DNA from: a bacterium
GTDB lineage: Bacteria > Armatimonadota > Zipacnadia > Zipacnadales > UBA11051
DNA: 64,000 nt
Direction of reading: 5' to 3'
NCBI GenBank assembly: GCA_021372615.1
Contig: JAJFUB010000018.1
Span: forward strand, 8,193 to 72,192
The translations under genes and the position numbers were made by a program. The notes under the pieces were generated by a model. That model was not told the origin of the DNA. It did not search any database and saw only the letters and a program-made list of their open reading frames with translations. The first letter of the stretch is position 1; each line of letters begins with the position of its first letter. Shown piece after piece: positions 9,241 to 31,610 of the stretch.

Positions 9241-9440
9241 CGAGGGGGCGGGCGGGGCAACGGCGGCCCACCCCCTGGCCCCCTCCCCGCGGGGGAGGGG
9301 GGGAAGGCCAACGGCGACCCACCCCCTGCCCCCTCCGGAGACGCTGCGCGTCTCACGGGGAGGGGGAACGGCAGACGGCACCCGCCGCCTGCCCCCTCCC
9401 CGCAGGAGAGGGGAACGGCAACGGCGGACGGCAGTCAGGG
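9241..9440. repeat. three tandem family-1 hairpin modules (CCACCCCCTGGCCCCCTCCCCGCGGGGGAGGGG / ...CTCCGGAGACGCTGCGCGTCTCACGGGGAGGGGG / ...CCCCCTCCCCGCAGGAGAGGGG), each followed by AACGGC hexamers
   Basis: Seen directly. Related copies throughout the window. Confidence 0.8.
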
Positions 9441-9546
9441 AGGTGGAGGATTCTTTGTGAAACTTCGTTCACAAATGCTAGTTCTGGGGTTTTGCTGTAC
9501 CTGCGATTATGGAGAGACGAATCAACACACACGCCGGGGACCTGTG

Positions 9547-11313
9547 ATGGAGCATGTGGATGAAGCGCGCACCAGAGCTGAACATGGGGGGCGGCACCGG
9601 AGGGTCTATGACGAGTGGCCGGTCGGGGTGCGGAGGTTCACGCAGGAGCGGCAGTACCTGGGGCTCGGCGACGAAGTGTACCCCCGCATCCTTGATACGC
9701 TGAGCCGCATCTTCCACGGGAAGTATGAGGAAGCAGCGCTGTGCTGGGGGATTGGATCGGGGAAGTCGTTCCTGTGCTCGCTGGCGCTGCTGTACATGGT
9801 GTACCGCACGCTGTGTCTGCGGGACCCGCAGCAGTACTACGGCCTGGCCGAGGGGAGCCCGATCCATATCGTGACGGTCGGGCCCACGGCACGCGTGGCC
9901 GAGAAGGCGATCTATGGCCAGATCCGCGGCATGGTGTCGCGGTCGCCGTGGTTCGCCGACAAGTACCCGGCCGACACCCGGACACGCCGCGAACTGCACT
10001 TCCCCAAGCATGTGGAGGTGCTGCCCGGGAACTCCAGCGACCTGTTCCCGCTGGGGCTCAATGTGCTGTGTGCGACCATGGACGAGGCAGCCTTCTTCGT
10101 CGAGACCCAGAGCGGCGGGCAGGAGGCAGCCGAAGAGGTGTACCTCGCACTGCAGCGGCGCATCAAGTCGCGGTTCGGTAGCCGGGGGCTCGTGCTAATC
10201 GCGTCCTCCCCACGGCACGGCGAGGACTTCATCATGCAGAAGCTGGCCGAGGCTGAGACGAACCCGACCGTCTTCGCGTCGCGCAAGGCCACCTGGGAAG
10301 TCAAGCCCGGCTTCAGCGGAGAGACGTGCGTCGAGGGCGGCCTGGAGGTGCCTGTGGAGCTGGCCGGGGAGTTCCGGCGCAACCCGCAGAAAGCGCGCCG
10401 TGACCTGGCCGCCCAGCCCGGAGCGGCGTACCAGCCGTTCTTTGTGGACATGGGGGCGCTGGAGGCGGCGTGCGGTGGGGCGCGGGACGGCGACGGCAAC
10501 GGCGTCCCACCCCCTGCCCCCTCCGCACGGGGGAGGGGGAACGTCAACGAGAACGTCAACGTCAACGGCGACGGCGTCCTCACCCCTACCCCTCTCCCTC
10601 GCCCGCCTTCGCCCTCCGGGCTACGGCAGGCTCCGGAGAGGGGAACGGCTGACGACAACGGCGGCCTACCCCGTCAGCGCTGCGCGCTGACACCCCTCCC
10701 TGGTAGGGAGGGGAAGGGCAACGGCGTGGAGGTGCGGCATCCGTTTGCGGAGGAGGGGAGGCTGGCGGATTGGTTCCGGCCTGATGATGCGGTGCCGCGC
10801 TATGTCCATATAGACCTGGGCCTCAAGAAGGACGCCTGCGGCATGGCCATGGCCAAGGTAGTCAGCGAGGGCGGGCAGCCTGTCGCGGTGGTCGAGCTGA
10901 TGCTGCAACTAACGGCACCGGCGGGCGGTGAAGTGAACCTCGCCACGCCACGGGAAATCGTGCTCGCTCTGCGCCGGCGAGGGTTCCCCATCGGCCAGGT
11001 GAGCTACGACGGATGGCAGAGCGCCGATAGCCTGCAGATCCTGCGCCGACACGGCGTGCGCGCGGTGACCGTGTCCGTGGACCGCGACCTGGGAGCGTAT
11101 GAGACGCTCAAGGAGCTGGCCAATGACGGGCGGCTGCGCATGTACCCCTTCAAGCCGTTCCTGGAGGAGTGCCGTCGGCTCGAACTGATCCAGGGGACCA
11201 AGGTGGATCACCCGGCCCATGGGTCCAAGGATGTGGCCGACGCGGTGGCCGGGGCGGTGAGCGAGGCGGTGAAGGCCTGGGGGGGGACGGATGTGAGGGG
11301 GAGGATCGTGTGA
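9547..11313 (+). CDS. terL: phage terminase large subunit (ATPase plus RNaseH-like nuclease). The inter-domain linker carries an in-frame palindromic repeat insertion.
   Basis: Walker A GIGSGKS, Walker B/catalytic VLCATMDEAAFF, C-terminal nuclease-like domain (YVHIDLGLKKDACGMAMAKV...DGWQSADS...DHPAHGSKDVADAV). The ORF track starts at 9457 and the first ATG is at 9475. An internal Met at 9547 (MEHVDE) is preferred but the start is uncertain. Repeat segment 10486-10725 translates as a low-complexity G/N/P-rich linker. Confidence 0.8.
   Translation: MEHVDEARTRAEHGGRHRRVYDEWPVGVRRFTQERQYLGLGDEVYPRILDTLSRIFHGKYEEAALCWGIGSGKSFLCSLALLYMVYRTLCLRDPQQYYGLAEGSPIHIVTVGPTARVAEKAIYGQIRGMVSRSPWFADKYPADTRTRRELHFPKHVEVLPGNSSDLFPLGLNVLCATMDEAAFFVETQSGGQEAAEEVYLALQRRIKSRFGSRGLVLIASSPRHGEDFIMQKLAEAETNPTVFASRKATWEVKPGFSGETCVEGGLEVPVELAGEFRRNPQKARRDLAAQPGAAYQPFFVDMGALEAACGGARDGDGNGVPPPAPSARGRGNVNENVNVNGDGVLTPTPLPRPPSPSGLRQAPERGTADDNGGLPRQRCALTPLPGREGKGNGVEVRHPFAEEGRLADWFRPDDAVPRYVHIDLGLKKDACGMAMAKVVSEGGQPVAVVELMLQLTAPAGGEVNLATPREIVLALRRRGFPIGQVSYDGWQSADSLQILRRHGVRAVTVSVDRDLGAYETLKELANDGRLRMYPFKPFLEECRRLELIQGTKVDHPAHGSKDVADAVAGAVSEAVKAWGGTDVRGRIV
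10486..10725. repeat. family-1 composite element inserted inside terL
   Basis: CCACCCCCTGCCCCCTCCGCACGGGGGAGGGGG. (AACGTC/AACGGC) hexamers. CCTCACCCCTACCCCTCTCCCTCGCCCGCCTTCGCCCTCCGGGCTACGGCAGGCTCCGGAGAGGGG. CACCCCTCCCTGGTAGGGAGGGG. Confidence 0.8.
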
Positions 11314-11319
11314 AGGAGG

Positions 11320-11570
11320 AGGCCGACCCTCACCCCCGGCCGCTCTCCCAGAGGGAGAGGGGAGCAGACGGCGGGGGTTGAAACCCCCGCCTGACGGGGA
11401 GGCGTCCCTCCGGGACGCCGGGACGGCAACGGCAACGGCGTCCTCACCCCTACCCCTCTCCCTCGGCCCGCTGCGCGGGCCTCCGGAGAGGGGAACGGCA
11501 ACGACGGCCTACCCCAGCCCTGCGGGCCACCCCTCCCTGAAGGGAGGGGGGAACGGCAACGACGGTGACG
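11320..11570. repeat. family-1 composite element between terL and portal (modules A, B and C)
   Basis: GGGGGTTGAAACCCCCGCCTGACGGGGAGGCGTCCCTCCGGGACGCC (module A, two short hairpins). AACGGC hexamers. CCTCACCCCTACCCCTCTCCCTCGGCCCGCTGCGCGGGCCTCCGGAGAGGGG. CCACCCCTCCCTGAAGGGAGGGGGG. Confidence 0.8.
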
Positions 11571-11719
11571 ACGGCGGTGTACGGGCGGCTCGGAAGCGAG
11601 GCGCTCTGTTCGGTTCTGGTGGGACGATGTGATGCTCTGACGGGGTCAGCCCCCCAGAGGACCGGATGCAGCCGGTCTTCCGGGGACGGACCCCACCCCG
11701 TACAGGTGGAGGCGAGGCA

Positions 11720-13090
11720 ATGTCGGATCTCGTGAAGGCGCAGGTTGTGGGGACGGACGGCAGAGGCGTGAGCAAGCAGTTGCCCGACTCGCCCTGGCAT
11801 GAGGCCTACGCACGGGGGGAAGTGGTGGAGCCCCCGTATGATCTGGAAGCGCTGGCAGCGCTGTATGAGACGAACTCGACCCACAAGGCGTGCGTGGACG
11901 CCAAGACCATCAACATCGTGGGGCTCGGGTACCGGTTCGTGCCCGTCGGGGGCGAGCGTGAGGCCGACAGCGGCAACCTGGCGCTGCTGCAGCACCTGTT
12001 CGACAACTCCAACCCCGAGATGACCTTCACCGAGGTGCTGCGGGCCGTGTGGACCGATGTGGAGTGCCTCGGGAATGGGTACCTGGAGTTGACCCGCAAC
12101 AGCCGGGGGCAGATTGACGGGATGTACCACGTGCCCGGGACGACGGTGCGGGTGCTGGCCGACCGATCCGGGTTCGTGCAGGTGCGCGACGGGAGGAAGC
12201 GGGTCTTCCGGAATGTGGGTGGAGAGCCGGTCGCGGTCGGTGACCGCTCCCACAACAGCACACAGGACGGGGGCGACGGGGGGCGGGGGGCGACTGCCAG
12301 CCTGGCAGATCATAGCGGGCGGGGTACGAGCGCCGCCCTGGCAGACCACAGTGGGCGGGGTACAAGCCCCCGCCCTACAGGGGACGCGGGCGAACAGAAT
12401 GAGGTGCTGCACTTCATGAAGTACACGCCGCAGTCCTCGTACTACGGGGTGCCCGACATCATCCCGGCGGTGTCCGCAGTGGCCGGCGATAAGGCGGCGC
12501 GCGAGTACAACATTGACTTCTTCAGCCACAACGCAGTGCCCCGGATGGCGATCATCGTCGAAGGGGGCGAGCTGTCCGAGGGCGTGGTGACGCAACTCAA
12601 GCACTTCATGGAGAGTGAGATCAAAGGGCATGGGCACAAGACGCTGGTGCTCGAGGTGCCCGGCGGCGGCGCCAACGTGAGGCTCGAGAAGCTCACCGTC
12701 GGAGGCTGCGAGGATGCGGCGTTCCTGGAGTACCGTCGGGCCAACCGGGATGAGGTGCTGCTGGTGCACCGCGTCCCGCCCAGCAAAGTGACCGTGGTCG
12801 AGAACGCCAACCTGGCCAACAGCAATGACCAGGACAAGACCTTCCGCGAGCAAGTCGTGCGGCCGGAACAGCGGCGGATCGAGTACCGGTTGAACCGGCT
12901 GGTGCGCGAGCAGCTCGGGATCGGGGACTGGGCCTTCCAGTTCAGGGAGATGGACCTGTCCGAGGCGCGCGAGGAGGCCGAGGTGGCTGCCATCTATGCC
13001 GGGATCGGAGTGCTGAGCGCGGAGGAAATCCGGGGGCGGCTCGGGATGGTGGCGTCGCCTGTGGCCCAGGCCGTCAGCGCTGGGCGGTGA
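11720..13090 (+). CDS. phage portal protein (HK97-like family)
   Basis: Immediately downstream of terL. 457 aa with a portal-like central region (KTINIVGLGYRF, YYGVPDIIPAVSAVAGDKAAREYNIDFFSHNAVPRMAIIVEGG). GGTGGAGG RBS before the ATG at 11720. The ORF contains a family-3 palindrome and an imperfect 36-bp tandem duplication (12234-12375). Confidence 0.7.
   Translation: MSDLVKAQVVGTDGRGVSKQLPDSPWHEAYARGEVVEPPYDLEALAALYETNSTHKACVDAKTINIVGLGYRFVPVGGEREADSGNLALLQHLFDNSNPEMTFTEVLRAVWTDVECLGNGYLELTRNSRGQIDGMYHVPGTTVRVLADRSGFVQVRDGRKRVFRNVGGEPVAVGDRSHNSTQDGGDGGRGATASLADHSGRGTSAALADHSGRGTSPRPTGDAGEQNEVLHFMKYTPQSSYYGVPDIIPAVSAVAGDKAAREYNIDFFSHNAVPRMAIIVEGGELSEGVVTQLKHFMESEIKGHGHKTLVLEVPGGGANVRLEKLTVGGCEDAAFLEYRRANRDEVLLVHRVPPSKVTVVENANLANSNDQDKTFREQVVRPEQRRIEYRLNRLVREQLGIGDWAFQFREMDLSEAREEAEVAAIYAGIGVLSAEEIRGRLGMVASPVAQAVSAGR
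12234..12375. repeat. family-3 palindrome (GGTCGCGGTCGGTGACCGCTCCCACA) plus an imperfect about 36-bp tandem duplication, inside the portal ORF
   Basis: Encodes ...SLADHSGRGTSAALADHSGRGTS... Family-3 copies at 6405, 35704, 37690-37765 (two inverted copies) and 51395. Confidence 0.7.
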
Positions 13091-13300
13091 GGGGCGGGGG
13101 GCAAGGGCGGGGGTTGAAACCCCCGCCTGACGGGGAAGCGTCCCTCCGGGACGCGGACGGAGGACGGCAACGGCGGCCCACCCCCTGCCCCCTCCCCACA
13201 GGGGAGGGGGAACGGCAACGGCAACGGCAGCAACGACGACCTACCCCCTGCCCCCTCCCTACAGGGAGGGGGGACGGCAACGACAACGGCGAACGGCGGT
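13091..13300. repeat. family-1 composite element (modules A, B and C twice) between portal and protease
   Basis: GGGGGTTGAAACCCCCGCCTGACGGGGAAGCGTCCCTCCGGGACGC. CCACCCCCTGCCCCCTCCCCACAGGGGAGGGGG. CTACCCCCTGCCCCCTCCCTACAGGGAGGGGGG. Confidence 0.8.
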
Positions 13301-13324
13301 GGCGCGCAGGCGAGCTGAGAGACA

Positions 13325-13801
13325 TTGGCGGGCTTGGAAGGTGATGGAGTGGCGGACGAGACGACCGCGGCGGAGTGGCAGTTCGAGGGCGTCGCGTCCA
13401 GCACCAGGCTGGACCGGCAACGGGAGAAGATCAGTAAGGGGGCGCTGCGACAGGTAGCGCAGAGAGGGCCCGTGGACCTGGTCGCGGCGCATAACGAGCG
13501 AGAGGTTGTGGTCGGCAGAATCGAGACGTGTGAGGTCGAGGGGGAGCTGCTGCGGGTCCGCGGGCGGCTGCGCGTGGACGCGCCCGAGGCCCGGGAGCTG
13601 CGACAACGGCTCGCGCGGGGCGAGAGGCTGGGGCTCAGCCTGGGCGGCAAAGTGAGCCGGGCCCACTGGGGCTGGGACAGCAATACCGAGGGACCCGTCC
13701 GGCATCTGGATGAGGTGGCCGTCGAGCATGTGGCGGTGTGCCGAGCGGAGCAAGCCGTGAACCCGGATGTGCGAGTACGACTAGTTGAGGGTGAGCAGTG
13801 A
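13325..13801 (+). CDS. prohead protease, HK97/U35-S78 family (start uncertain)
   Basis: FEGVASSTRLDRQREKISKGAL and LVAAHNEREVVVGRIE resemble the conserved S/H blocks of HK97 gp4-type proteases. It sits between the portal and major capsid genes. Confidence 0.5.
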   Translation: MAGLEGDGVADETTAAEWQFEGVASSTRLDRQREKISKGALRQVAQRGPVDLVAAHNEREVVVGRIETCEVEGELLRVRGRLRVDAPEARELRQRLARGERLGLSLGGKVSRAHWGWDSNTEGPVRHLDEVAVEHVAVCRAEQAVNPDVRVRLVEGEQ

Positions 13802-14217
13802 ACGGTGTGGTGCGCCGGATAGCCGAGAAGCTGCGGTGGGCGTGGCGGAGGCGACGAGGTGAGGACAAACGAGGGGACGACCTGGCCGAACGGCTCGGAC
13901 AGATCGAGGAGAAGCTGAGGGAGATCGAGGCGAGCATGCAAGCCGATGGCGGAGGCGCGACAGTGACGACGGGCAGCCAGCAGGCGCAGGAAGAGCGGGG
14001 ACCGGAGGTGTGGGAGGCGGCGGGGACGACGCCCCGGCCGCTGGTGGAGCGCACCGCAGTGCTGGCGAAGGCACAGCGGGCCGGAGACATCGTCCTGGCG
14101 GGCGATGAGGACGTGGCAGACGAGACGATGGTCGAGGTCAGGCCCGGAATGCCCCAGGGGCTACCGGGACAGCAGGCGCGGCGGAAGGCGGCGCGATTCT
14201 GGGAAGGGGTGCTGTGA
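13798..14217 (+). CDS. hypothetical phage protein (possible scaffold/decoration), charged and helical
   Basis: GTG start overlaps the protease stop (GTGA). Stop overlaps the capsid ATG (TGAATG). EKLREIEASMQ coiled-coil-like segment. Confidence 0.35.
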   Translation: MNGVVRRIAEKLRWAWRRRRGEDKRGDDLAERLGQIEEKLREIEASMQADGGGATVTTGSQQAQEERGPEVWEAAGTTPRPLVERTAVLAKAQRAGDIVLAGDEDVADETMVEVRPGMPQGLPGQQARRKAARFWEGVL

Positions 14218-15159
14218 ATGAGTGTCGAGGAGATGCTGCAGAAGGCCATTGACACGACGGATCTGGCGGCCGGTGGGCTGCTGGGGCCGGAGCAGTCGCG
14301 GAAGTTCACCGACTTGGTCATTGACCAGTCGGTGATGCTGCAGGAGGCGCGCGTGGTGCGGATGCGGTCGGCAGTGACCGAGATCGACCGCATCGCCACC
14401 GCCGGCCGGGTGAGCCAGCTCAAGAGCGAGGGCGTGGCGCCGAGCACGCTGGCCGAGCCCGCGTTCTCGAAGGTGACGCTGACGGCGGTGGATATCATCA
14501 CCCCGTTCGAGCTGACCTTCGAGGCGCTCGAGGACAACGTCGCAGGCGGGAACCTGGAGGATACGGTGATCCGGGTCATGGCCAAGCAGACGGCGACGGA
14601 CCTGGAGGAGCTGGCGATCAAGGGCGACGTCACGTCGGGCGACACGTTCCTGGCGGGCATGAACGGCTGGCGCGTGCTGGCTGACGGCGGCCACGTGGAG
14701 GACCTGGCGGGCGCGACGCTGGACAAGGGCGCGCTGAGCGCGATGTTCCGGGCATTGCCCGACAAGTACAAGCGCAACTACGGGGACCTGCGCTTCTACT
14801 TCGCGCCGACAGTGACCCAGGACTGGCATGACACGTTCGCCGACCGCGGCACCAGCGCGGGCGACAAGGCGCTGCTGGGCGCCCAGGTGCCGCCGTACAT
14901 GGGCGTGCCGCTGGTGACCGTGCCGACCATCCCCACGAACCTGGCCGGGGTGAGCGGGACCACGGGCACGAACCTGAGCTACGGGTTCCTGACCCCGCGC
15001 GACAACCTGATCTTCGGCATCCACCGGGAGATCCGCATCGACAAGGACCGCGACGTGCTGCGCGGTGTGAACATCTACGCGATCACCACCCGTGTGGCCG
15101 TGGAGTTCGAGAATGACGATGCGGTGGTGCTGGCGGTGAATGTCGGGAAGACGGCGTAG
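14218..15159 (+). CDS. phage major capsid protein, HK97 fold
   Basis: 313 aa. Gene order is terminase, portal, protease, capsid. HK97-MCP-like blocks are present (TATDLEELAIKGD, GMNGWRVLADGG, PTVTQDW, DVLRGVNIYAITTRVAVEFENDDAVV). Confidence 0.75.
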   Translation: MSVEEMLQKAIDTTDLAAGGLLGPEQSRKFTDLVIDQSVMLQEARVVRMRSAVTEIDRIATAGRVSQLKSEGVAPSTLAEPAFSKVTLTAVDIITPFELTFEALEDNVAGGNLEDTVIRVMAKQTATDLEELAIKGDVTSGDTFLAGMNGWRVLADGGHVEDLAGATLDKGALSAMFRALPDKYKRNYGDLRFYFAPTVTQDWHDTFADRGTSAGDKALLGAQVPPYMGVPLVTVPTIPTNLAGVSGTTGTNLSYGFLTPRDNLIFGIHREIRIDKDRDVLRGVNIYAITTRVAVEFENDDAVVLAVNVGKTA

Positions 15160-15335
15160 GGGCGGGAGAGGGAGAGGGCGGGGGTTGGCCCCCCCGGGAA
15201 GCGGGGCGGCAACGGCGGCCCACCCCCTGGCCCCCTCCGGAGACGCTGCGCGTCTCGCAGGGAGGGGGAACGGCAACGGCGACGACAAGGGCGGGGCCTG
15301 CGGCTCGTTCTGGGCCGCAGGCCTCTGCATGAGTG
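15160..15335. repeat. family-1 element plus an extra hairpin (GGCCTGCGGCTCGTTCTGGGCCGCAGGCC) after the capsid gene
   Basis: CCACCCCCTGGCCCCCTCCGGAGACGCTGCGCGTCTCGCAGGGAGGGGG. Confidence 0.75.
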
Positions 15336-15345
15336 GAGATGCGTG

Positions 15346-15729
15346 ATGAGACGGAAGCGATGGGCAGGACTGATTGCGGCAGTGTTGGTGCTGAGCTGTA
15401 GCGTCGGGCTGGCTGAGGATCTGGTGCTGTCGGTAGGGGCGGTTGGTGGGATCGCGCCGGATGGTGTGGTGGGGCCTGAGCTGTCGCTGCGGCTCCTGCC
15501 GCTGAAGGGCAGCACGACAGGACAGGGAACGCCATATCTGTGGCTCGATGTGGCGGCGACGACTGACGACTTCTCGCAGTGGGGCGTGATGACAGGACTG
15601 AGCGCGGACCTCGCGGCGGTGAGCAGTCTGACAGCCGGGATCGCACAGCGAGGCGGGTTCGGACGGGACTGGACGCGCGAGGTGTGGGTGCTGTATGTCA
15701 GCCGGAGCTTCTCGTCGCTGTTTGAGTAG
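15346..15729 (+). CDS. small secreted hypothetical protein (signal peptide)
   Basis: N-terminal MRRKRWAGLIAAVLVLSCSVGLA signal-peptide-like segment. GGAG RBS. Confidence 0.4.
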   Translation: MRRKRWAGLIAAVLVLSCSVGLAEDLVLSVGAVGGIAPDGVVGPELSLRLLPLKGSTTGQGTPYLWLDVAATTDDFSQWGVMTGLSADLAAVSSLTAGIAQRGGFGRDWTREVWVLYVSRSFSSLFE

Positions 15730-15762
15730 TACCGGCTTGCGGGAGTTCGCGTCACAAGGGCG

Positions 15763-15851
15763 GTGGGTGTCGCGGCGAGGACGCGCAGCGGTCTCCGAGC
15801 GGCGGCCCCACCGCTGGTCGTGGGGCCCGTCGCACACGACGCGACACCCAC
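15763..15851 (+). other. nested stem-loop structure (GGTGGGTGTCGCG...CGCGACACCCAC enclosing GGCCCCAC...GTGGGGCC) upstream of the LamG structural gene. Candidate structured RNA, attenuator or terminator.
   Basis: Two nested inverted repeats of 12 and 8 bp seen in sequence. The intergenic region spans 230 bp. Confidence 0.35.
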
Positions 15852-15958
15852 GACCTGTCACCGTTAGCATGCGAACCTAGTCAAGTCGGCACCAGGCCGG
15901 TGGCGAGGCGAGTCGGGACGAGCGGACGGACCGAGCTTGAGCGGAGGATCAGTCGAAC

Positions 15959-20016: not shown

Positions 20017-20018
20017 AC

Positions 20019-20190
20019 GAGGGCGGGGGTTGAAACCCCCGCCTGTCGGAAGCGTCCCTCCGGGATGCTGACGGAGGACGGCGACGGCAACGGCGTCCTC
20101 ACCCCTACCCCTCTCCCGCGCTACGCGCCGGAGAGGGGAACGACTGCAGCAGCGGCGGGCTACGGAGAGGGGAACGCCAACGGCGGAAGG
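20019..20190. repeat. family-1 composite element
   Basis: Module A GGGGGTTGAAACCCCCGCCTGTCGGAAGCGTCCCTCCGGGATGC followed by CCTCACCCCTACCCCTCTCCCGCGCTACGCGCCGGAGAGGGG. Confidence 0.8.
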
Positions 20191-20200
20191 GACTGCGAGT

Positions 20201-20548: not shown

Positions 20549-20800
20549 GACGGCGGCCCACCCCCTGCCCCCTCCCCGCAGGGGAGGGGGAACGGCTAAT
20601 GGCGGCCTCGCCCGGCAGCGGAACGCGGGGGTTCAAGCCCCCGCCTGTCAGAAGCGTCCCTCCGGGACGCAGGACGGCGACGGCGGCCTACCCCGGCCCT
20701 GCGGGCTACCCCTCCCTGAAGGGAGGGGTAAAGGCAACGGCGGCTCAGCCTCTGGCCCCCCTCCGGAGACGCTGCGCGTCTCACAGGGAGGGGGGACGGC
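20549..20800. repeat. family-1 composite element (module C, module A variant GGGGGTTCAAGCCCCCGCC, module C twice)
   Basis: CCACCCCCTGCCCCCTCCCCGCAGGGGAGGGGG. CTACCCCGGCCCTGCGGGCTACCCCTCCCTGAAGGGAGGGG. GGCCCCCCTCCGGAGACGCTGCGCGTCTCACAGGGAGGGGGG. Confidence 0.8.
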
Positions 20801-20829
20801 ATGGCACACGATAGCATGCGGAGGGACGT

Positions 20830-21513: not shown

Positions 21514-21585
21514 GGCAGGGGCGAGGGTCGAGGGGCGAGGGTCAAGGGTAACGGCGACGGCGGAGGCGACGGCAGGGGCGACGGG
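21514..21585. repeat. G-tract spacer (GGCAGGGGCGAGGGTCGAGGGGCGAGGGTCAAGGGTAACGGC...) after the stop of 20830-21513
   Basis: Seen directly. Confidence 0.55.
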
Positions 21586-21659
21586 GACTGACACGGAGAG
21601 AGGCGATCTGCGGATCGGCTCTCTTCGCACTTCTGGTAGACGGCAAGGTGGTGCGGACA

Positions 21660-22562
21660 ATGGCAGTGGCACTGGCCCAGGAGGGCGCTTTCGGGTTTGG
21701 CTTGCAGACGCAACAGGGGACGGCTGTCGCGCCCAGTGTGTGGCTGCCGCTCATGGGCGGCGGCAACCGGGGCGAGACGCTCAAATGGCACAAGAACTAC
21801 GTGACGCTGGACATGGCGGACACGAACGACTTCGAGAGCCGGTACTTCAGCGTGGGCGAGTGGGTGGAGGGGCAGATCACCGTGCCCATGGTGCCCGGGT
21901 CGCTGACGGCCCTGCTGTCCTGGATCCAGGACCGAGACCAGGACAACCAGGGGAAGTGGGCGTCGCTGGTCGTGGACTGCGTGAATGAGGTCAAGCAGGT
22001 GACCGATGCCAAGGTGCGGCGGGTGACGCTGGACATGCTCAAGGGGCAGCCCGTGACCTGCACGCTCGACGTCGTGGCGCTCAAGATGCAGAGCGGGGCG
22101 GCGGCAGCGGTGACCATGCCGACGGCGGCGCCGTATCTGTACCGCGAGGCGATGGTGCAGATCGGCGATACCGGCGGCACGCTGGCGGAGGACGTGTCCT
22201 GCGAACAGATCCGCATCGTGATCGAGAACATGGTCGAGCCGCCGGCAGAGGGGCTGCGGCTGGTCAGCGGCGTCAACCCCCGGCACCTGTATAACCTCAG
22301 CGGCGTGCGGTGCCGCGGGGCCATCAGCCGCGACTTCGCGGACACGACGCTCTACGCCGACTTCGCGGCCGGGCAGGAGGCGGCGCTGCGGCTCGACCTG
22401 ACCCGCGGGGCCAGCACCGCGAGCATCTCCCTCCCGCGCGTGCTGTACACCGAGAGCGACCTGGGGCTGCCCGGCTCGCACGAGCAGCGGATCGTCGAGA
22501 CAGTGCAGTTCCTGGCACTCGGCAGTACGGATGGGCTGACGGCGCCGGTGGTGTTGGCCTAG
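21660..22562 (+). CDS. hypothetical phage structural protein (candidate major tail/tube protein by position)
   Basis: AAGGTGG RBS before the ATG at 21660. 300 aa. Positional inference only. Confidence 0.35.
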   Translation: MAVALAQEGAFGFGLQTQQGTAVAPSVWLPLMGGGNRGETLKWHKNYVTLDMADTNDFESRYFSVGEWVEGQITVPMVPGSLTALLSWIQDRDQDNQGKWASLVVDCVNEVKQVTDAKVRRVTLDMLKGQPVTCTLDVVALKMQSGAAAAVTMPTAAPYLYREAMVQIGDTGGTLAEDVSCEQIRIVIENMVEPPAEGLRLVSGVNPRHLYNLSGVRCRGAISRDFADTTLYADFAAGQEAALRLDLTRGASTASISLPRVLYTESDLGLPGSHEQRIVETVQFLALGSTDGLTAPVVLA

Positions 22563-22597
22563 CGGTCACCCCCGGCTCTGCCTGGTGGCGGGGAGGG

Positions 22598-22705
22598 TCG
22601 GCGGTTGAAGCCCCCGCCTGTGGGAAGCGTCCCTCCGGGACGCGGGACGGCAACGGCGTCCTACCCCCTGCCCCCTCCCTGAAGGGAGGGGGAACGGCAA
22701 CGGCA
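22598..22705. repeat. family-1 composite element (modules A, B and C)
   Basis: GGCGGTTGAAGCCCCCGCCTGTGGGAAGCGTCCCTCCGGGACGC. CTACCCCCTGCCCCCTCCCTGAAGGGAGGGGG. Confidence 0.8.
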
Positions 22706-23196
22706 TGCGGGATGCGGAAGGGTGGCGGTGGAGGGTGATGAGTTGGGCGGCGTGGGGTGACGGGGTTGAGGAGGCGGTGGTGGTGGAGGCGTCTGTTGAG
22801 ATCAGCGGGTGGGCGCGGAAGCCCTGGTTGAGGCTGCGGGCCCTGACTGAGGCGGAGGCGCTGGAACGAGAGAGCCTGGGGCTGGCGGAGGAGTATGAGC
22901 TGGTGAGCGGGGGCCTGCAGGAGCCCGCGGTGCGCGTGCGGCGGACGTATGACCTGCTCGTGATGGCTGAGTACGACTACGAGCACTGCGTCCTGGAGTT
23001 CTGCCTGCCGGAGCTGCAACGGGATGGGAGCGTGGCCGAACGGTGGATGGGGCGGGACGCTGAGCCCGGTGAGAAGGCGGCGTTCCTGGGACGGATGCAG
23101 CCGGCGATGGCGGAGTGGGTGCGCACCGAGATCGAGCGCGTGAACCATAGGCAGCCGGCGCAACGGGCGGCCATGGAGCTGGCGAAAAAAAACTGA
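22705..23196 (+). CDS. hypothetical phage protein
   Basis: 163 aa, acidic. Position is compatible with a tail assembly chaperone. Confidence 0.3.
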   Translation: MRDAEGWRWRVMSWAAWGDGVEEAVVVEASVEISGWARKPWLRLRALTEAEALERESLGLAEEYELVSGGLQEPAVRVRRTYDLLVMAEYDYEHCVLEFCLPELQRDGSVAERWMGRDAEPGEKAAFLGRMQPAMAEWVRTEIERVNHRQPAQRAAMELAKKN

Positions 23197-23234
23197 GGGG
23201 CCTCGCCCGCCAGGAGCATGGAACGGCGGCGGGG

Positions 23235-23519
23235 TTGGCGGAGGTGCTGGAGGGTGAGCTGCCGGCCCCGACCGTGCGTGTGCACGAGGGGGTGGACTTC
23301 ACCGACGCCCGGGAGGCGGCGGCGCTGCTGGGGACGGAGAAGCCAGTGGCTGTGCGCGTGCCGGCGTGGGCGCTGATGACGGTGGCGGTGCTGCGCGAGC
23401 TGTGGAGGCATGAGGTGACGGGGCAGTTGCCCGGAGGCAGGGCGTGCACGGAGCAGCCGGCGTGGAAGGTGGCGCTGTGGGAAGCGTACTGGCAGGCAAG
23501 GGGAGTGAGGCTGAGGTGA
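23235..23519 (+). CDS. hypothetical phage protein (candidate upstream ORF of a -1 frameshift pair)
   Basis: 94 aa. Its 3' end overlaps ORF 23444-24187, which lies in the -1 frame relative to it. Confidence 0.3.
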   Translation: MAEVLEGELPAPTVRVHEGVDFTDAREAAALLGTEKPVAVRVPAWALMTVAVLRELWRHEVTGQLPGGRACTEQPAWKVALWEAYWQARGVRLR

Positions 23520-24187
23520 GAGTACAGGCCACGATCAGTCCCCGCGCGCCGGCCCTGATGCTGCCCCGGTGGCTGCCGACTGGGGTCCGTGAGGCGCGCA
23601 GTGAGGCGGAGGCAGCGGCGGCGGAGGAGAGTGCGGAGGCGATCCAGGTCGCTGACGCACGGCCGAGGGCGGCGGGGGAGGGGGCGGCAGTGGGACGAGG
23701 GGCGCCAGGGAAGGCTCTCGCCCCGGGCAGTGTGGCCGAGAGGCTCACCCCCGGAGAAGGCGCCCCTCTCCCCCACTCCCGGGCGTGGCAAACGAGGCGG
23801 CGGGAGCTGACGGAGCTGCGCGAGAGGCTGCGGGCGCGGGCGATGCGGCGAGCGGCGGAGCCAGGCGGGCAGCGCGGGGTCGTCAGGCGCGGTGAGGCGG
23901 ACGAGGATGGGCGGAGTCTGGAAGGGCACGCTGTGCCGGACGTGGCGGCGGCGGCGTCCGTCGCGCCGCCGCCGAGCGCTGATGACGGCGGCCGCAGCGT
24001 GGCCGGAGGCTACGGCCATGGGGTGGCGGAGCGACGGCAGGTGACGCCGCTCGAGCCTGGAGGGCTCAGTGTGGCTGAGCGGGCTGCGGCAGGCGCGGCG
24101 ACCTGCGGCGGGCGTGAGGCAGCGGCGGCGATGCGGCGGGCTGTGTTTGACCACGATGGGGATGTGCGGCTGGAGCTGAGTCGGTAG
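23444..24187 (+). CDS. Ala/Arg/Gly-rich ORF, possibly the frameshifted extension of 23235-23519. It may be non-coding.
   Basis: Low-complexity translation, so a GC-driven spurious ORF is plausible. It is retained only because of the classic overlapping -1 frame geometry. Confidence 0.15.
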   Translation: MHGAAGVEGGAVGSVLAGKGSEAEVRVQATISPRAPALMLPRWLPTGVREARSEAEAAAAEESAEAIQVADARPRAAGEGAAVGRGAPGKALAPGSVAERLTPGEGAPLPHSRAWQTRRRELTELRERLRARAMRRAAEPGGQRGVVRRGEADEDGRSLEGHAVPDVAAAASVAPPPSADDGGRSVAGGYGHGVAERRQVTPLEPGGLSVAERAAAGAATCGGREAAAAMRRAVFDHDGDVRLELSR

Positions 24188-24274
24188 CGGGGTGGTGGTA
24201 GTAGGCGGCAGGCGAGGCGGGCAGGCGGGGTGGAGCCCCGTCCCGGCGCAGTCGGCGCGAGCGGCGCGGGAGGG

Positions 24275-24450
24275 GTCGGGGGTTGAAACCCCCGCCTATG
24301 GGAAGCGTCCCTCCGGGACGCGGACGGCGACGGCGACGGCAACAGCGACGGCGGCCTACCCCGGCCCTGCGGGCCACCCCTCCCTGAAGGGAGGGGTAGA
24401 GGCAACGGCTGCCTACCCCCTCCCTGAAGGGAGGGGGGAACGGCAACGAC
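24275..24450. repeat. family-1 composite element upstream of the large structural gene
   Basis: GGGGGTTGAAACCCCCGCCTATGGGAAGCGTCCCTCCGGGACGC. (GGCGAC)n. CTACCCCGGCCCTGCGGGCCACCCCTCCCTGAAGGGAGGGG twice. Confidence 0.8.
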
Positions 24451-24479
24451 GGGAGCTTGTGAGAGGCGGTGGCGATGGC

Positions 24480-27329
24480 ATGGCACCTGAGGGGCCCGGG
24501 CAGTGGGAGCAGGAAGTGGTGCGGCTGGGATCGGCGCAGGGCGTGACGGTGCTCCGAGACTTCACCACGGCCGGGCAGGTCACGTTCACCACGGCGGGGG
24601 GGGGCATCGCGGCGACCGTGTACAAGGCGCGGACGCCGGATGTGACGCTGGAGAACGTCGCGGTCTATCTCGTGCAGAAGCTGGCGGATGACTGGCAGAC
24701 GGGGCAGCCGTATGCACTCGTCGAGCAGTATGTGGTGATGGTGGATGACCCGTACTGGGGTCGGTGCATTCAGCCGGCGGGATTCGCAGCGGCGCCGCTG
24801 AGCCAGACGTTCGTGATGGGGTACCGCGTCAAGGGGCGCATTCTGCAGGACGGGGAGGCCGTGGCGGAGGCCAACGTGAGCCTGGAGGGGGTGTGCGCCG
24901 GAGGCGGCGGTGAGGCGGTCTTCTGGGACAGCCAGGAGTTCAATGAGCTGATCTGGTCAGATACGCTCGCGACGTACGTGGAGGGGTCCACTGTCCATGC
25001 GCCGATCATGACGGATGCGGAGGGACGGTGGTCGTTCATCTGCCCCAAGGGCCACGGGGCAATCTACCAACGCGAGGGCGACCGGCGCGATGGTACGCCG
25101 GAGACGGCGGCGGAGGCATTGCCCCGGCAGCTCACGAGGCTGTCGGCAGTGTACCACGGGCGGCGCGCGGAGCTGACCGAAGAGGTGGAAGCGGTCATTG
25201 ACGTGCTGAGTGGCAAGCTGAACGTCAGTGGCGAGCCGGGGGCATGGGTGAAGGTCGGGGCGCTCGATGAGGATGGCGAGGGGTACCCGATCCCCGAGGG
25301 GGGCAGCGTGCTGGTCGAGGGGCTGCCCGCCGGGGAACATGCGGTGGTGCAGTTCAAGCTGGCCGACGGGTGGGACTCGTCGTGGGGGTGCGCGCGGCAG
25401 GTCCTCGAGGTGGTCGAAGGCGCGACGGCCAGCGTGGCGATGGGGGCCATGCAGCAGTATGACCCCGGTGGTAACACGATCGCCGGGCGGGTGTATGAGC
25501 GACCAGGGGTGCCGGCCGCCGGCATCGCGATCGTGCCGATCAACTTCGAGACGATGGAAGTGCTGGACCCGATCGCCAGCACGGACGGCGGGGGGTACTG
25601 GGAGGTCGAGATCCCCGAGGAGGGCCTGGGGGGCGACCCGTGGGTGTATGACGGGACGTGGGGGTGTGTGCCACTGATCGGCTTCCCGTACTCGGATGTG
25701 GTGCTGGGGGCGAGGGCGTACAGCGGGTTCGCCGAGATCTACAAGCCGGAGGCGTGGCGGAAAGGGACGCGCGGTCACGCGAACTTCCAGTATGTGCCAG
25801 AGGGCGTGTGGGTCCAGGACAACGAGACGAACGAGGTGTTCGCCACCGAGGAGGCGGCGCACGGGGGGTACGTCACCACCGAGACGTTGCCGAAGTTCAA
25901 GTTCGTGGGCGATGTGAACGCGCTGCTGACGTCGGGGCCGCAACTGCGGGAGTATAGCCTGCGGACGAACGGCGAGGTGCTGCTGCCCGAGTTCACGCTG
26001 CGGTCGCAGAACTTCGAGGGGTATGAGACGCTGGCCGGGCAATACCGGGCGGCGGGGTTCTACCCGGAGATCAAGTTCCTGATCGGCGGGAAGGTCCACG
26101 GGGGCGTGGTGACGGGGTGCCAGGCGGAGATTGGCCTGACGCTGCCGGAGGCGTACCGAATCGGGCTGGAGTTCGGGGAGCATGAGTGGTTCACCCAGGT
26201 GACGGCAGTGTCCGGGGGGCGGCGGGCATGCTTCGCCGACCTGCTGTGCCCGTATTGCGGGGGGCCCACGTGGCGGGACCCGGACGCCAATGGCTATGTG
26301 CGCGGGTTCTGCTGGCAGTGCGCGCAGATGTTCGGGACCGGGGAGGCCATGGACGGGCGGACGCATTTCCAGACGCCGACGCTGGCGCCCGGGGTCGGGA
26401 AGACGCTGCAAGGCCTGTGTGTGCCGAGGAACGGGGGGAGCCGGGCGTACCCGGTCAACTACCACTGGCGGCCCGACCTGTATGACGAGAACGACAACTA
26501 CCTGGTGCAGAGCGGCACCGGGCAGACGACCAATGCGCCACGGTGGTTCGCCAGGCATGTGAGTGAAGTTGGCGATGGGCTGGGGTTCGGGCGGCTCGAT
26601 ACGAGCCTCTCCCCTGCCTTCACCGCCGGGCATGACCTGGAGTGGTTCGGAGCGCTGCCGGAAGTGGATCGTGACCTGGGGGTCACGCAGATGAAGCTGG
26701 TCTTCGCCGCGGGATACACCCAGGCCGAGGACGTCACCGTTGAGTTGGTCTGCCGGCTGCTGGCCGGGGGGACGGAGACCGTGCGGGTCGCCATCCCGGC
26801 AGGGACGGCGGGGCCCAGCGAGAGCCAGGCGATCAGTGACGTGGTGCGGATCAAGAAGGTCGGGAAGTGGACGGCCGAGCGGCGGGGGGCGCCGTACACG
26901 GGGTCGGGGCTGTATGTGGCCGTGACGGAGGCCCGAGTGGTCGAGCCGGCCGGGGCGACGTGTGAGTTCGTCATCGTCAACGATGCGCCGCTGCTGGCCA
27001 GCGCAGATGGGGTGCCCGTGGAGAGACAACGGGCTACGCCAGCGGCGCTGCAACTGGGGGCCAGCGGCGCGAGCGGGCCGCACCTGATGGATGACGCCGT
27101 GGGGCAGGTGTTCCTGTTCTACGCGCGCGAGGGTGAGGTGTGGATGCGCCGGCGAGCGGGACTGCCCGCCGCGTGGCGTGGGGCGGTGCAGGTGACGAGC
27201 GACGGGGACAACTCGGAGCCGTGCGCGGAGAAGGATGACGCGGGGCGGCTACGGCTGCTGTGGCAGCATGGCGGCGACGTGCGCAATGCCGTGTCGGTGG
27301 ATGACGGCGCGAGCTGGGTGGAGGTCTGA
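24480..27329 (+). CDS. large phage structural protein (about 950 aa) with an internal zinc ribbon and a C-terminal BNR-like repeat. Fibre/spike-like, not tape-measure-like.
   Basis: Start moved to the ATG at 24480 (MAPEGPGQW) because the upstream part of ORF 24192 translates repeat elements. CPYCGGPTW...CWQCAQ zinc-ribbon. Terminal SVDDGASW BNR-like motif. Beta-rich and W/Y/G-rich composition. Confidence 0.5.
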   Translation: MAPEGPGQWEQEVVRLGSAQGVTVLRDFTTAGQVTFTTAGGGIAATVYKARTPDVTLENVAVYLVQKLADDWQTGQPYALVEQYVVMVDDPYWGRCIQPAGFAAAPLSQTFVMGYRVKGRILQDGEAVAEANVSLEGVCAGGGGEAVFWDSQEFNELIWSDTLATYVEGSTVHAPIMTDAEGRWSFICPKGHGAIYQREGDRRDGTPETAAEALPRQLTRLSAVYHGRRAELTEEVEAVIDVLSGKLNVSGEPGAWVKVGALDEDGEGYPIPEGGSVLVEGLPAGEHAVVQFKLADGWDSSWGCARQVLEVVEGATASVAMGAMQQYDPGGNTIAGRVYERPGVPAAGIAIVPINFETMEVLDPIASTDGGGYWEVEIPEEGLGGDPWVYDGTWGCVPLIGFPYSDVVLGARAYSGFAEIYKPEAWRKGTRGHANFQYVPEGVWVQDNETNEVFATEEAAHGGYVTTETLPKFKFVGDVNALLTSGPQLREYSLRTNGEVLLPEFTLRSQNFEGYETLAGQYRAAGFYPEIKFLIGGKVHGGVVTGCQAEIGLTLPEAYRIGLEFGEHEWFTQVTAVSGGRRACFADLLCPYCGGPTWRDPDANGYVRGFCWQCAQMFGTGEAMDGRTHFQTPTLAPGVGKTLQGLCVPRNGGSRAYPVNYHWRPDLYDENDNYLVQSGTGQTTNAPRWFARHVSEVGDGLGFGRLDTSLSPAFTAGHDLEWFGALPEVDRDLGVTQMKLVFAAGYTQAEDVTVELVCRLLAGGTETVRVAIPAGTAGPSESQAISDVVRIKKVGKWTAERRGAPYTGSGLYVAVTEARVVEPAGATCEFVIVNDAPLLASADGVPVERQRATPAALQLGASGASGPHLMDDAVGQVFLFYAREGEVWMRRRAGLPAAWRGAVQVTSDGDNSEPCAEKDDAGRLRLLWQHGGDVRNAVSVDDGASWVEV

Positions 27330-27331
27330 GG

Positions 27332-27640
27332 ATGGCGACCATAGCCGGCCTGACGTACCCCACGATGGTCGAGCACAACGGGGTCATGTATGTGACCGGG
27401 TACCGCGAGGGCGGGGTGTATGTACGGCGGACCGCGGACGGCGGGGTGACGTGGCTGAAGTTCAGCGACGGAGCGGAAGAGCGGCTGGTGTGCGCGCCGG
27501 CGGATGAGGCACGGGCGGGGCTGGTCAAGATGGAGAGCCAGGGGCGGCGCCTGATGGCCGCGGTGTCGGTGGCGCCGGATATCGCCATCTATGTGAGTGC
27601 GGATGATGGGGAGACGTGGGGGTTCGAGGCGACGGTGTGA
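27332..27640 (+). CDS. BNR/Asp-box repeat protein. Possibly a C-terminal continuation of the upstream gene, separated from it by a single TGA.
   Basis: TADGGVTW and SADDGETW Asp-box repeats. The ATG lies 2 nt after the stop of 24480-27329, which itself ends in an Asp-box. Confidence 0.4.
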   Translation: MATIAGLTYPTMVEHNGVMYVTGYREGGVYVRRTADGGVTWLKFSDGAEERLVCAPADEARAGLVKMESQGRRLMAAVSVAPDIAIYVSADDGETWGFEATV

Positions 27641-28115
27641 GGGCCCTCACCCCCTGGCCCCCTCTCCCAGGGGGAGAGGGGGGAAAGGCGAACGGCGGGA
27701 GCGGGATGCCATGGCACAGCGTGCAGAGGACTCTTGACGCGACTCCGCCCGTCTTCGCCCTGTGGCTACTACGGCGGAGCGCGGGGGTTGAAACCCCCGC
27801 CTGTCGGAAGCGTCCCTCCGGGACGCGGGACGGCAACGGCAACGACAACGGCGTCCTCACCCCTACCCCTCTCCCTCGCCCGCCTTCGCCCTGCGGGCTA
27901 CGGCGGCGGAGCGCGGGGGTTGAGACCCCCGCCTGTCGGAAGCGTCCCTCCGGGACGCGGGACGACAACGGCAACGACAACGGCGTCCTCACCCCTACCC
28001 CTCTCCCTCGCCCGCCTTCGCCCTGCGGGCTACGGCGGGCTCCGGAGAGGGGAACGGCAACGACGGCCTACCCCGGCCCTGCGGGCCACCCCTCCCTGAA
28101 GGGAGGGGAACGGCA
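27641..28115. repeat. largest family-1 repeat island, containing a near-perfect tandem duplication of an about 127-bp unit (27769-27900 and 27896-28030)
   Basis: The unit is CTACGGCGGAGCGCGGGGGTTGA[A/G]ACCCCCGCCTGTCGGAAGCGTCCCTCCGGGACGCGGGACG[G/A]CAACGGCAACGACAACGGCGTCCTCACCCCTACCCCTCTCCCTCGCCCGCCTTCGCCCTGCGGG. Only 2 mismatches between copies. Confidence 0.8.
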
Positions 28116-31530: not shown

Positions 31531-31555
31531 CGAAGGCGAGTGGGGCGGGGGCAGT

Positions 31556-31610
31556 CGGGGGTTGAACCCCCCGCCTGGGGGGAAGCGTCCCTCCGGGACG
31601 CCGGGGGGAG
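31556..31610. repeat. family-1 module A solo copy
   Basis: GGGGGTTGAACCCCCCGCCTGGGGGGAAGCGTCCCTCCGGGACGCC. Confidence 0.75.

Follow-up and report, generated by a model that had tools for sequence, protein, structure and literature searches.

Repetitive extragenic palindromic (REP) sequences, the REP doublets forming hairpins (REPINs), the REP-associated tyrosine transposases (RAYTs), the REPtrons and TIRtrons that bring repeats and transposases together, and intragenic REPs have all been described (PMC3733652, PMC3116915, PMC2817692, PMC5581495). In TIRtrons, a terminal inverted repeat-associated tyrosine transposase (TIRYT) is accompanied by longer, partly double-palindromic inverted repeats, which are able to form repeat families, for instance in Koribacter versatilis (PMC3733652). 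A further motif of relevance here is Acido-Lenti-1 (Rfam RF01687), which is filed as a small RNA (sRNA), with 89 copies and a function that is unknown (PMC2864571). The present text deals with a family of repeats found in a 64,000-nt stretch of contig JAJFUB010000018.1 (the window, that is, the whole 64 kb of DNA analysed) and in contigs from related genomes. These repeats are assembled from three modules: module A, a unit of two hairpins; module B, a run of hexamers; and module C, a second family of hairpins.

Taken together, the modules most likely constitute a lineage-specific, previously undescribed family of REP-like palindromic elements that are non-autonomous and have a Y1 transposase as their partner; the bacterium that carries them is uncultured and has a high G+C content. 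The first-pass annotation of the window had already proposed a non-autonomous mobile family resembling REPs or miniature inverted-repeat transposable elements (MITEs). This proposal is supported by the presence of module A next to both host and phage genes, by the variable occupancy of gene junctions, and by a Y1 transposase that is flanked by module-A doublets in relatives. The G+C content of the window is 66-72%, and its terminase is 100% identical to NCBI protein LLH23_02335, with Armatimonadetes, Armatimonadia and candidate division WS1 as the nearest named relatives. For the hydrogenase protein, an exact look-up gave no record, probably owing to a different called start codon. The closest relatives of the host are annotated as Armatimonadota, and the host itself is probably Armatimonadota-like. 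A full-text literature search found no papers on the repeat sequence or on REPs in Armatimonadetes. Systems of this kind are known; what is unusual about the present one is its unit of two hairpins, its dense spread on one strand of a conserved phage-like cluster, and the in-frame copies in the terminase gene.

Structure and distribution of the modules

That three recurrent modules exist, as the first-pass annotation had claimed, is borne out by their counts in the window. The 16-mer GGGGGTTGAAACCCCC of hairpin 1 of module A occurs, with at most two mismatches, at 9 distinct sites on the + strand (0.02 expected), and the second hairpin, GCGTCCCTCCGGGACGC, is found at all 9. For module C, the exact pattern of the C1 flavour, CCCCCTCCC-N(3-30)-GGGAGGGGG, gives 8 matches against 0 expected. 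For module B, the run ACGGCRACGRC gives 33, of which 32 are on the + strand, against 0.38 expected. A wider set of module A comprised 76 distinct copies on about 50 contigs, drawn from the window, IMG/VR, 40 metagenome contigs retrieved by pattern, and two contigs of an Armatimonadia metagenome-assembled genome (MAG); 69 distinct copies were aligned and used to build a covariance model, R1. Run unfiltered over the whole window, R1 gives exactly 9 strong matches of 62-77 bits, all on the + strand and all within 11370-31604, while the next best match scores 28 bits. These copies, and a degenerate one, are the following.

11370..11421, +, module A of the GCG type, 59 nt past the terminase stop codon (R1 66.7 bits)
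13106..13157, +, module A, 18 nt past the portal stop codon (R1 72.0 bits)
15179..15196, +, degenerate module A after the capsid stop codon, hairpin 1 only, GGGGGTTGGCCCCCCC (R1 7.8 bits, partial)
20022..20071, +, module A with a G.U pair in hairpin 2, 8 nt past the stop of gene 19351-20016 (R1 71.2 bits)
20624..20673, +, module A with the hairpin 1 variant GGGGGTTCAAGCCCCC (R1 62.0 bits)
22597..22646, +, module A following the tail-tube gene (R1 66.0 bits)
24275..24324, +, module A following gene 23444-24187 (R1 76.8 bits)
27780..27829, +, module A in unit 1 of a tandem duplication (R1 70.7 bits; weak full-length match to Rfam Acido-Lenti-1, 21 bits)
27912..27961, +, module A in unit 2 of the same duplication (R1 66.9 bits)
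31554..31604, +, solitary module A, with neither B nor C, between genes 30829-31530 and 31629-31964 (R1 64.4 bits)

Module A is 46-50 nt long. In the 69 aligned copies, hairpin 1, (G)CGGGGGUUGAAACCCCCG(C), consists of a UGAA loop on a stem of 9 bp and varies hardly at all in sequence. The C and T directly 3' of it are invariant and are mostly followed by a purine and a pyrimidine, the four bases reading RYAG on the other strand. After CT, a linker of 8-10 nt leads to hairpin 2, which has a 7-bp stem, a UCC loop and two subtypes, GCG and CCG; only singlets of the GCG type are present in the window. Across all contigs, most copies lie 2-150 nt past a stop codon, and the L126 orthologue of the copy at 24275..24324, for instance, lies 6 nt past one.

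The stems are well paired: 94% of the stem cells of module A are paired, compared with 90% in shuffles and 39-62% when the partners are slid, a comparison to be read with the caveat that the search pattern by which copies were gathered fixed most stem positions. Changes on both sides are seen at six stem pairs, and hairpin 2 is 100% paired, with no mismatches (GC 44/CG 25; UA 61/CG 8), its GC/CG alternation being a marker of the two subtypes and not a record of many independent events. Such variants had been taken at first to indicate selection on structure rather than on sequence. The stems do keep pairing through changes on both sides, but hairpin 1 is conserved in sequence and hairpin 2 falls mostly into two subtypes. 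Thus, the variants argue for a hairpin requirement and not specifically for selection on RNA structure. A requirement of this kind is as expected for recognition of single-stranded DNA by a Y1 transposase.

Reading of the islands and a hairpin search, in which CCCCTCTCC...GGAGAGGGG variants and long-loop forms were added, bring the C-type total to about 29 units of three flavours. C1 is CCCCCTCCC-loop-GGGAGGGGG, at times with an inner hairpin inside the loop; C2 is CCTCACCCCTACCCCTCTCCC ... GGAGAGGGG; and C3 is a small variable hairpin followed by CCCCTCCC-TGAA-GGGAGGGG. The inner hairpins of the C units differ in sequence yet pair (GGCCC/GGGCC, GGCGC/GCGCC, GCCGC/GCGGC, GTCAGCGC/GCGCTGAC). 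Together with the B runs, C units form the bulk of the arrays, which are listed here in the order of the window.

1528..1620, +, C2 (core 1539-1583) and (AACGGC)6 in the 3' part of open reading frame (ORF) 783-1706, outside the phage-like block
6430..6490, +, C2-like unit between NuoF-like and [FeFe] hydrogenase genes
9256..9434, +, three C units (cores 9279-9301, 9329-9366, 9392-9413) and B runs, no A, after the canonical terminator 9204-9240
10483..10731, +, three C units (cores 10517-10539, 10589-10643, 10693-10713) and B runs inside the terminase frame
11320..11565, +, island after the terminase gene: C2-like hairpin 11343-11359, module A, B run, C2 11453-11493, C3 11515-11549
13164..13290, +, two C1 (cores 13188-13210, 13251-13272) as a 63-nt tandem pair, with B runs
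15205..15290, +, C1 with an inner hairpin in its loop (core 15231-15268), B run
20074..20185, +, B run, C2 (core 20108-20138), truncated 3' half of a C2
20549..20800, +, island: C1 20568-20590, module A, B run, C3 ~20690-20730, long-loop C1 20756-20795
22647..22704, +, B run, C1 (core 22671-22692), second B run up to the next start codon
24324..24452, +, B run, C3 (~24352-24398), C1 (core 24416-24437)
27641..27700, +, C-type unit CCCCCTCTCCC-AGG-GGGAGAGGGGG (core 27658-27682), right after the stop of 27332-27640
27746..28038, +, tandem duplication, period 132, 2.2 copies, 95% identity (Tandem Repeats Finder score 537), with module A, a B run and the 5' half of a C2 nested in the loop of a C2 hairpin
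28040..28115, +, C2 3' arm, B run, C3 (28066-28110)
48724..48790, +, C1 and B runs between two minus-strand genes, antisense to both
63889..64000, mixed strand, C1 in minus orientation (core 63895-63916), then a plus C3-like unit cut by the window end

Several earlier statements about this layout change in detail. Nearly every junction of the phage-like block (9457-33568) had been described as occupied; 10 of the 14 gaps tabulated there do carry A or C, but 15730-15958, 21514-21647, 23197-23234 and 30450-30477 carry neither. A genome-wide distribution had also been proposed. The occurrence of the family in relatives and, within the 64 kb, of C and B outside the block agrees with it, although module A of the window is confined to the block and only C and B units are found elsewhere (1528-1620, 6430-6490, 48724-48790 and 63889-64000). 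The island placed at 9241 is real, with three C units but no A. The tandem duplication, given as 127 bp, is likewise real, but its period is 132 and its span 27746-28038. By contrast, the copy assigned to the vicinity of 34850 turned out to be only a B run next to a different shared segment (34868-34900), and the three C units in the terminase frame (10483-10731) and the one at 1528-1620 had been missed. B runs are also located 5' of genuine terminators at ~33608 and 38630 and are therefore a more general gene-end feature of the source genome.

The copies inside the terminase gene form an in-frame insert of 249 nt, or 83 codons, in the linker that joins the ATPase domain to the nuclease domain. 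In the aligned terminase homologues, this insert is absent or other inserts are present at the same linker, and several of these look like element sequence in translation, PPPAPSPRGRGNGDG and LTPTPLP being examples.

A few observations accompany the arrays. An extra shared segment, GCCGGCTGG(A/C)AGCCGGCGCTC(CTACGGC), with a hairpin of its own, adjoins B runs at 1618-1650, 34868-34900 and 53620-53655. Runs of G-rich heptamers (GGGGTCA/GGGTCAG-like) come right after stop codons at 8305-8345, 33569-33691 and 38593-38625, followed by B runs and genuine terminators; those at 33569-33691 form a large palindrome between convergent genes. Other long, near-perfect palindromes, with folding z-scores of -3.5 to -7, are situated in host intergenic regions (37690-37755, 44460-44560, 55470-55560). 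They are unrelated in sequence to A and C, and one has GGTCACCGACCGCGACCG-like sequence in common with 6400-6430. The ORF called from 24192 (24192-24503) reads through an A/C array, and its L126 orthologue aligns only from residue 105. Hence, the tape-measure-like gene probably starts near 24476-24504, and arrays inflate ORF calls.

Module A in related genomes and its probable Y1 transposase

Independent contigs with module A number more than 45 and come from metagenomes, viruses and MAGs; among them are 40 metagenome contigs from about 11 sample series, as well as IMG/VR and MAG contigs. The contigs, designated by L numbers, were sorted by tblastn of window proteins against them. Orthologues of phage-block genes, with 65-95% amino-acid identity, are found in L126, L128, L131, L137, L151, L153, L154 and L161. 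Module A lies beside metabolic genes in L127, L129, L130, L147, L155 and L168, and its host neighbours include URO-D-like, rhamnose-mutarotase-like, amidohydrolase and GFO/IDH/MocA genes. Phage genes and ordinary host genes are thus found alike next to module A, and the family is therefore not phage-specific.

In these relatives, module A is often arranged in convergent inverted doublets of 95-110 nt, in which one GCG-type and one CCG-type half are separated by spacers of 7-24 nt. At least 11 such doublets occur in L003/L143, L129, L130, L134, L138, L141, L162, L163 and L165, while the window has none. The occupancy of individual sites also differs. In L139, whose flanks are nearly identical to those of the window, a single module A stands where the window has two C1 units (the first two of 9256..9434). 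Where window genes abut or overlap, L154 and L153 have arrays of 250 and 440 nt. In the latter case (L153 740-1240 against window 19330-19380), about 20 nt of the stop/start overlap, GTGTGGTCSGAGGARTGG, is found on both sides of the 440-nt array, which in this single case could be either a long target duplication or a duplication kept by selection for both intact genes.

The first-pass annotation had suggested a search for a cognate IS200/IS605 Y1 transposase, and such a gene, flanked by module-A doublets, does exist in related genomes. A regular-expression search for RAYT motifs found genes of that type only in unrelated Terracidiphilus loci. When phmmer was seeded with these Terracidiphilus RAYT-like proteins, weak matches were obtained in L129, L130 and L134. 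The matching proteins are Y1 transposases of 144-147 residues, which score 76-80 bits with Pfam PF01797 and 64-66 bits with the NCBIfam IS200/IS605 equivalog model (cut-off 55) and have the motifs DDHVHxLV (HUH) and AYIxxQ (catalytic tyrosine). In L129 and L134, the gene (tnpA) is flanked on both sides by module-A doublets that are strong R1 matches; L130 is cut inside tnpA, and the single flank on the contig is a module-A doublet as well. The same flanking is seen in L168 (83% homologue) and in L167 (65% homologue, from an Armatimonadetes MAG). In all, module A flanks the Y1 transposase in at least five related contigs (L129, L130, L134, L167 and L168), and L170-L173 are further cases. A MAG with dispersed copies is among them: the 100%-identical transposase is found in contig 31 of the Armatimonadia MAG CAZZDO01, of which contigs 26 and 324 hold dispersed A copies.

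The transposase family is small, with 22 clusters in a database search, and each protein cluster was seen on just 1-6 contigs. Wherever the retrieved sites of identical or 83-88%-identical transposases reach the flanking genes, the neighbourhood is one and the same, across samples and species-level divergence: an M60-like peptidase or GHL6, tnpA, a gene of 466 residues and an amidohydrolase (L129, L130, L168, L170-L171). Such constancy is what a gene present in one copy and inherited vertically would show, and it does not suit an insertion sequence that moves about. Around homologues of 43-53% identity, the flanking two-hairpin units are of other kinds, and in one case (L180) hairpin 2 is preceded by a literal GTAG; thus, repeat and enzyme change together. 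Among the more distant TnpA homologues examined, all with other two-hairpin units, none was found to be flanked by C-type units.

Sequences that resemble part of module A are more widespread. In a scan of a genome collection with the 18-mer of hairpin 1, the matches listed belong mostly to a separate Terracidiphilus repeat family and include two contigs of one Armatimonadia MAG. In the listed MAGs of Terracidiphilus and other Acidobacteriaceae (L074, L087, L110 2585-2960), the 18-mer forms the core of another repeat, about 65 nt long and bounded by GGCTTTA/TAAAGCC. One copy of this acidobacterial repeat, in L074 (605-2863), is an in-frame part of a UvrC-like gene (...GGGGFNPRISPAEKTRALAPE...). 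Genes resembling those of RAYTs are present in L058, L073 and L110, the last of these truncated and about 100 nt from a repeat copy. The exact 18-mer also heads two-hairpin units in Microcoleus/Tychonema, Anaerolineae (L030, L077, L112), Cloacimonadota (L044, L050) and Moduliflexus (L107, L120), again among the matches listed. The units of these phyla have an identical hairpin 1, CU/U, a linker of 8-13 nt and a different hairpin 2, which is the plan of module A and of Acido-Lenti-1. No gene common to the surroundings of hairpin 1 across phyla was found in the retrieved loci. As a lead only, and going by sequence, two-hairpin motifs of several phyla that are filed as sRNAs or are undescribed may be repeats associated with Y1 transposases.

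In the mechanism that these data suggest, module A would be the repeat proper, and RYAG on its other strand would hold the position of the GTAG tag of classical REPs. The cognate enzyme would be the single-copy, syntenic IS200/IS605-type Y1 (HUH) transposase that lies between inverted doublets in related genomes, in an arrangement like that of REPtrons and TIRtrons. This enzyme would recognise the hairpins as single-stranded DNA, cut beside the tag, and copy or move the units. Local tandem duplication and recombination between units would then build and remodel arrays composed of A, a B run and a C unit, with C hairpins and ACGGCRAC runs as companion modules in the same mosaics. Copies would persist where they do little harm, that is, just 3' of stop codons and, once, in frame in a flexible terminase linker. 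A long-resident phage-like block under purifying selection would in this way have gathered elements at most of its gene junctions.

Some findings weigh against a REP-like family with a transposase partner. The transposases score 16.8 bits with the NCBIfam RAYT model (REP_Tyr_transpos), for which the cut-off is 80, and a literal CTAC after hairpin 1 (GTAG on the other strand) is found in only about 8 of the 69 copies. No transposase gene is found in the 64-kb window, and the link consequently rests on repeat homology and not on co-occurrence in the source genome. Among the transposase homologues examined, none was found between C-type units, although these are the more numerous kind in the window. 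Module A of the window occurs only as same-strand singlets and only in the phage-like block, which could also reflect function. Finally, mobility is deduced from differences in presence and absence and was not observed.

The phage-like block and competing explanations

Window genes were called by third-position G+C. The genes that surround the repeats are the following.

2802-8304, [FeFe] hydrogenase operon
8449-9180, DUF1559/prepilin-type gene
9457-33568, +, phage-like block, which begins right after the hydrogenase operon and one DUF1559 gene
9457-11313, +, terminase
11666-13090, +, portal
13325-13801, +, protease-like gene
14218-15159, +, capsid
15959-19369, +, protein of 1136 residues with a Laminin_G_3 (concanavalin-like) domain and a C-terminal Ig-like domain
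19351-20016, +, head-tail adaptor
21648-22562, +, tail tube
ending at 27329, +, probable tape-measure gene
listed between the tape-measure and endolysin-like genes, +, gene for a protein of 767 residues
32639-33568, +, gene with a peptidoglycan-binding, endolysin-like domain

The remainder of the window holds genes of ordinary metabolism. Only head, tail and lysis functions are represented in the block; genes for an integrase, a repressor or replication were not seen within the 64 kb. The hydrogenase/DUF1559/terminase junction is repeated in metagenome contig L139, with identities of 99%, 60% and 94%, respectively. Block genes have ratios of nonsynonymous to synonymous substitution (dN/dS) of 0.17-0.35, that is, they are under purifying selection, and the synonymous divergence from L139 is 0.18 for the terminase and 0.17 for the adjacent hydrogenase. 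As these two values agree, the block is a long-term resident and neither a decaying nor a newly arrived prophage. It has the appearance of a cluster that has been resident for long and may have been domesticated, similar to a gene transfer agent (GTA). Two side observations concern single genes. The protein of 1136 residues, between the capsid and the head-tail adaptor, has an odd place and size for a head-module gene. The DUF1559 gene (window 8449-9180, L139 688-1383) is only 60% identical while its neighbours are 99% and 94% identical, and is therefore a local divergence hot spot or a replacement.

The elements, whatever their origin, might now act mainly as RNA, as intercistronic hairpins that serve as 3' exonuclease barriers, processing sites or modulators of translational coupling. 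Such a role, which resembles that of REPs in E. coli operons or of T7 RNase III sites, is compatible with a REP origin; we consider it possible, though on the whole improbable as the main explanation. It is favoured by orientation, since in the + strand gene region of the window each of the 9 A copies and each of the 17 orientable C units is sense, and C units across the window and related loci are sense in 35 cases and antisense in 6 (p = 5e-6). It is also consistent with the position of module A 8-142 nt past stop codons, with its presence at 8 of the 13 junctions of the block but at none of about 30 elsewhere in the window (p = 9e-6), and with its retention at the same junction in L126, L128, L131, L137, L151 and L161, at 65-95% amino-acid identity. 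Moreover, the block seems to be transcribed through. A terminator scan of 8201-28200 gave only 8362-8391 and 9204-9231, both upstream of the block and neither of them A or C, and neither U-tract terminators nor sigma-70-like promoters were found inside 9457-28200. The sense orientation in a terminator-free operon thus makes it probable that the elements are transcribed within one long operon, where, judging from their sequence, they may form stable RNA hairpins between cistrons. These would not be canonical terminators, a function that had been considered for them at first, because no A or C unit has a U-tract, which the genuine terminators of the window do have; the units are followed by G/A/C-rich runs.

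Several observations do not fit a mainly RNA-level role. Occupancy varies between close relatives, C units can replace A, solitary antisense copies exist in L123, L129 and L147/L089, and copies adjoin unrelated host genes. The folding energies of whole arrays, compared with dinucleotide shuffles, give modest z-scores (+0.7 to -6.5) without any preference for the sense or antisense strand. A comparison of G.U with A.C mismatches in C-type stems, which bears on RNA- or DNA-level constraint, was dominated by register errors. In addition, single-strand transposition would be expected to orient units along replication, and this could explain the orientation equally well. The enrichment of repeats in the block might stem from tolerance, from exposure of single-stranded DNA or from recruited function.

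Alternatively, module A could mark both termini of an IS200-type insertion sequence that is active, measures about 710-760 bp and is made up of a doublet, tnpA and a doublet, with solitary copies as derivatives similar to MITEs or palindrome-associated transposable elements (PATEs) and not as parts of a domesticated REP/RAYT system. IS200-type elements are of that same size, and the transposase passes the IS200/IS605 model and fails the RAYT one. Such an insertion sequence is nonetheless unlikely in view of the single tnpA neighbourhood and of the restriction of each protein cluster to a few contigs. Both flanks of tnpA are, besides, the same palindromic doublet, without the distinct left and right ends that characterise IS200/IS605 elements.

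A more specific proposal, which we regard as doubtful, joins the REP-like origin to a function. According to it, REP-like units and companion hairpins have been recruited as intercistronic punctuation of a vertically inherited, domesticated GTA-like phage-particle cluster beside a hydrogenase operon. A selfish Y1 repeat system would in this way set transcript stoichiometry or stability, and the units in the terminase would be a tolerated or a used segment.

It is very unlikely that module A is a regulatory site encoded by one phage lineage, for instance a site for a repressor or an antiterminator, comparable to mycobacteriophage stoperators. Its restriction to the phage-like block in the window, in one orientation and at junctions, and its presence in IMG/VR contigs would agree with such a site, but this idea is largely refuted by the copies beside metabolic genes in six contigs, as well as by the inverted doublets and their position around a transposase gene. 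Lastly, although one 132-nt tandem duplication is present, a pattern confined to one locus by local duplication, or created in assembly from a collapsed repeat, has practically no chance of being the explanation, as the same units recur in the more than 45 contigs mentioned above, which are independent and stem from many samples and assemblers, and the copies differ from one another and lie between intact genes under purifying selection.

Relation to known repeat systems

A lineage-specific REP-like family of this kind would extend the partnership between REPs and Y1 transposases to an uncultured lineage that has hardly been studied, and to a unit made of two hairpins. It may also offer an explanation for two-hairpin motifs that are filed as sRNAs without a known function, including Acido-Lenti-1. 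For annotation, the arrays matter because they swell intergenic space, create spurious long ORFs and add peptide to real proteins such as the terminase, so their recognition improves the annotation of MAGs. The heavy one-strand colonisation of a conserved phage-like cluster, in turn, bears on whether repeats are tolerated or used.

Like the REP, bacterial interspersed mosaic element (BIME) and REPIN-RAYT systems of Proteobacteria (PMC2817692, PMC3116915, PMC3733652), the elements are short GC-rich palindromes in high copy number, located mostly just 3' of genes. Occasional intragenic copies and an occupancy that varies between strains are further traits shared with REPs. With REPtrons, the family shares two unit types that form inverted doublets and a single-copy HUH/Y1 gene flanked by repeats, and its RYAG may correspond to their unpaired tag by the stem. 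By contrast with REPs, module A has two hairpins and a length of 46-50 nt, its tag is RYAG and not a strict GTAG, and its host belongs to an uncultured Armatimonadota-like lineage. The window, moreover, has only one-strand singlets, set in mosaics that also contain hexamer runs and hairpins of a second family. Unlike the enzyme of REPtrons, the transposase linked to module A scores as IS200/IS605 and not as RAYT in the curated models.

TIRtrons resemble the family in having a Y1 transposase between inverted repeats with more than one palindrome, in the dispersal of repeats as singles, dimers and clusters, and in their occurrence outside Proteobacteria. They differ, in a comparison made by description only, in that each module-A flank is itself an inverted doublet. 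As for the copies in the terminase gene, they recall Rickettsia palindromic elements (RPEs) and intragenic REPs (PMC3733652), which are in-frame palindromic inserts at tolerated protein sites and add peptide. Here, however, the site is the interdomain linker of a phage terminase, the C-type units are of another sequence family than RPEs, and relatives differ in the insert at the same spot.

The plan of Acido-Lenti-1 is the same as that of module A, with an 8-bp stem, a 4-nt loop, CU, a linker of about 12 nt, and a stem of 5-7 bp with a 3-nt loop (CGUxCC-UyC-GGxACG). At gathering thresholds, no Rfam family matches the window, and at E-value thresholds the sole match is the sub-threshold one to Acido-Lenti-1. 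Module A aligns with the Acido-Lenti-1 model over its full length, with 14-21 bits, below the gathering score of 37, and by the Rfam criterion it is not a member of that family. Acido-Lenti-1 also differs in having no described link to a transposase, whereas module A, in related genomes, flanks one.

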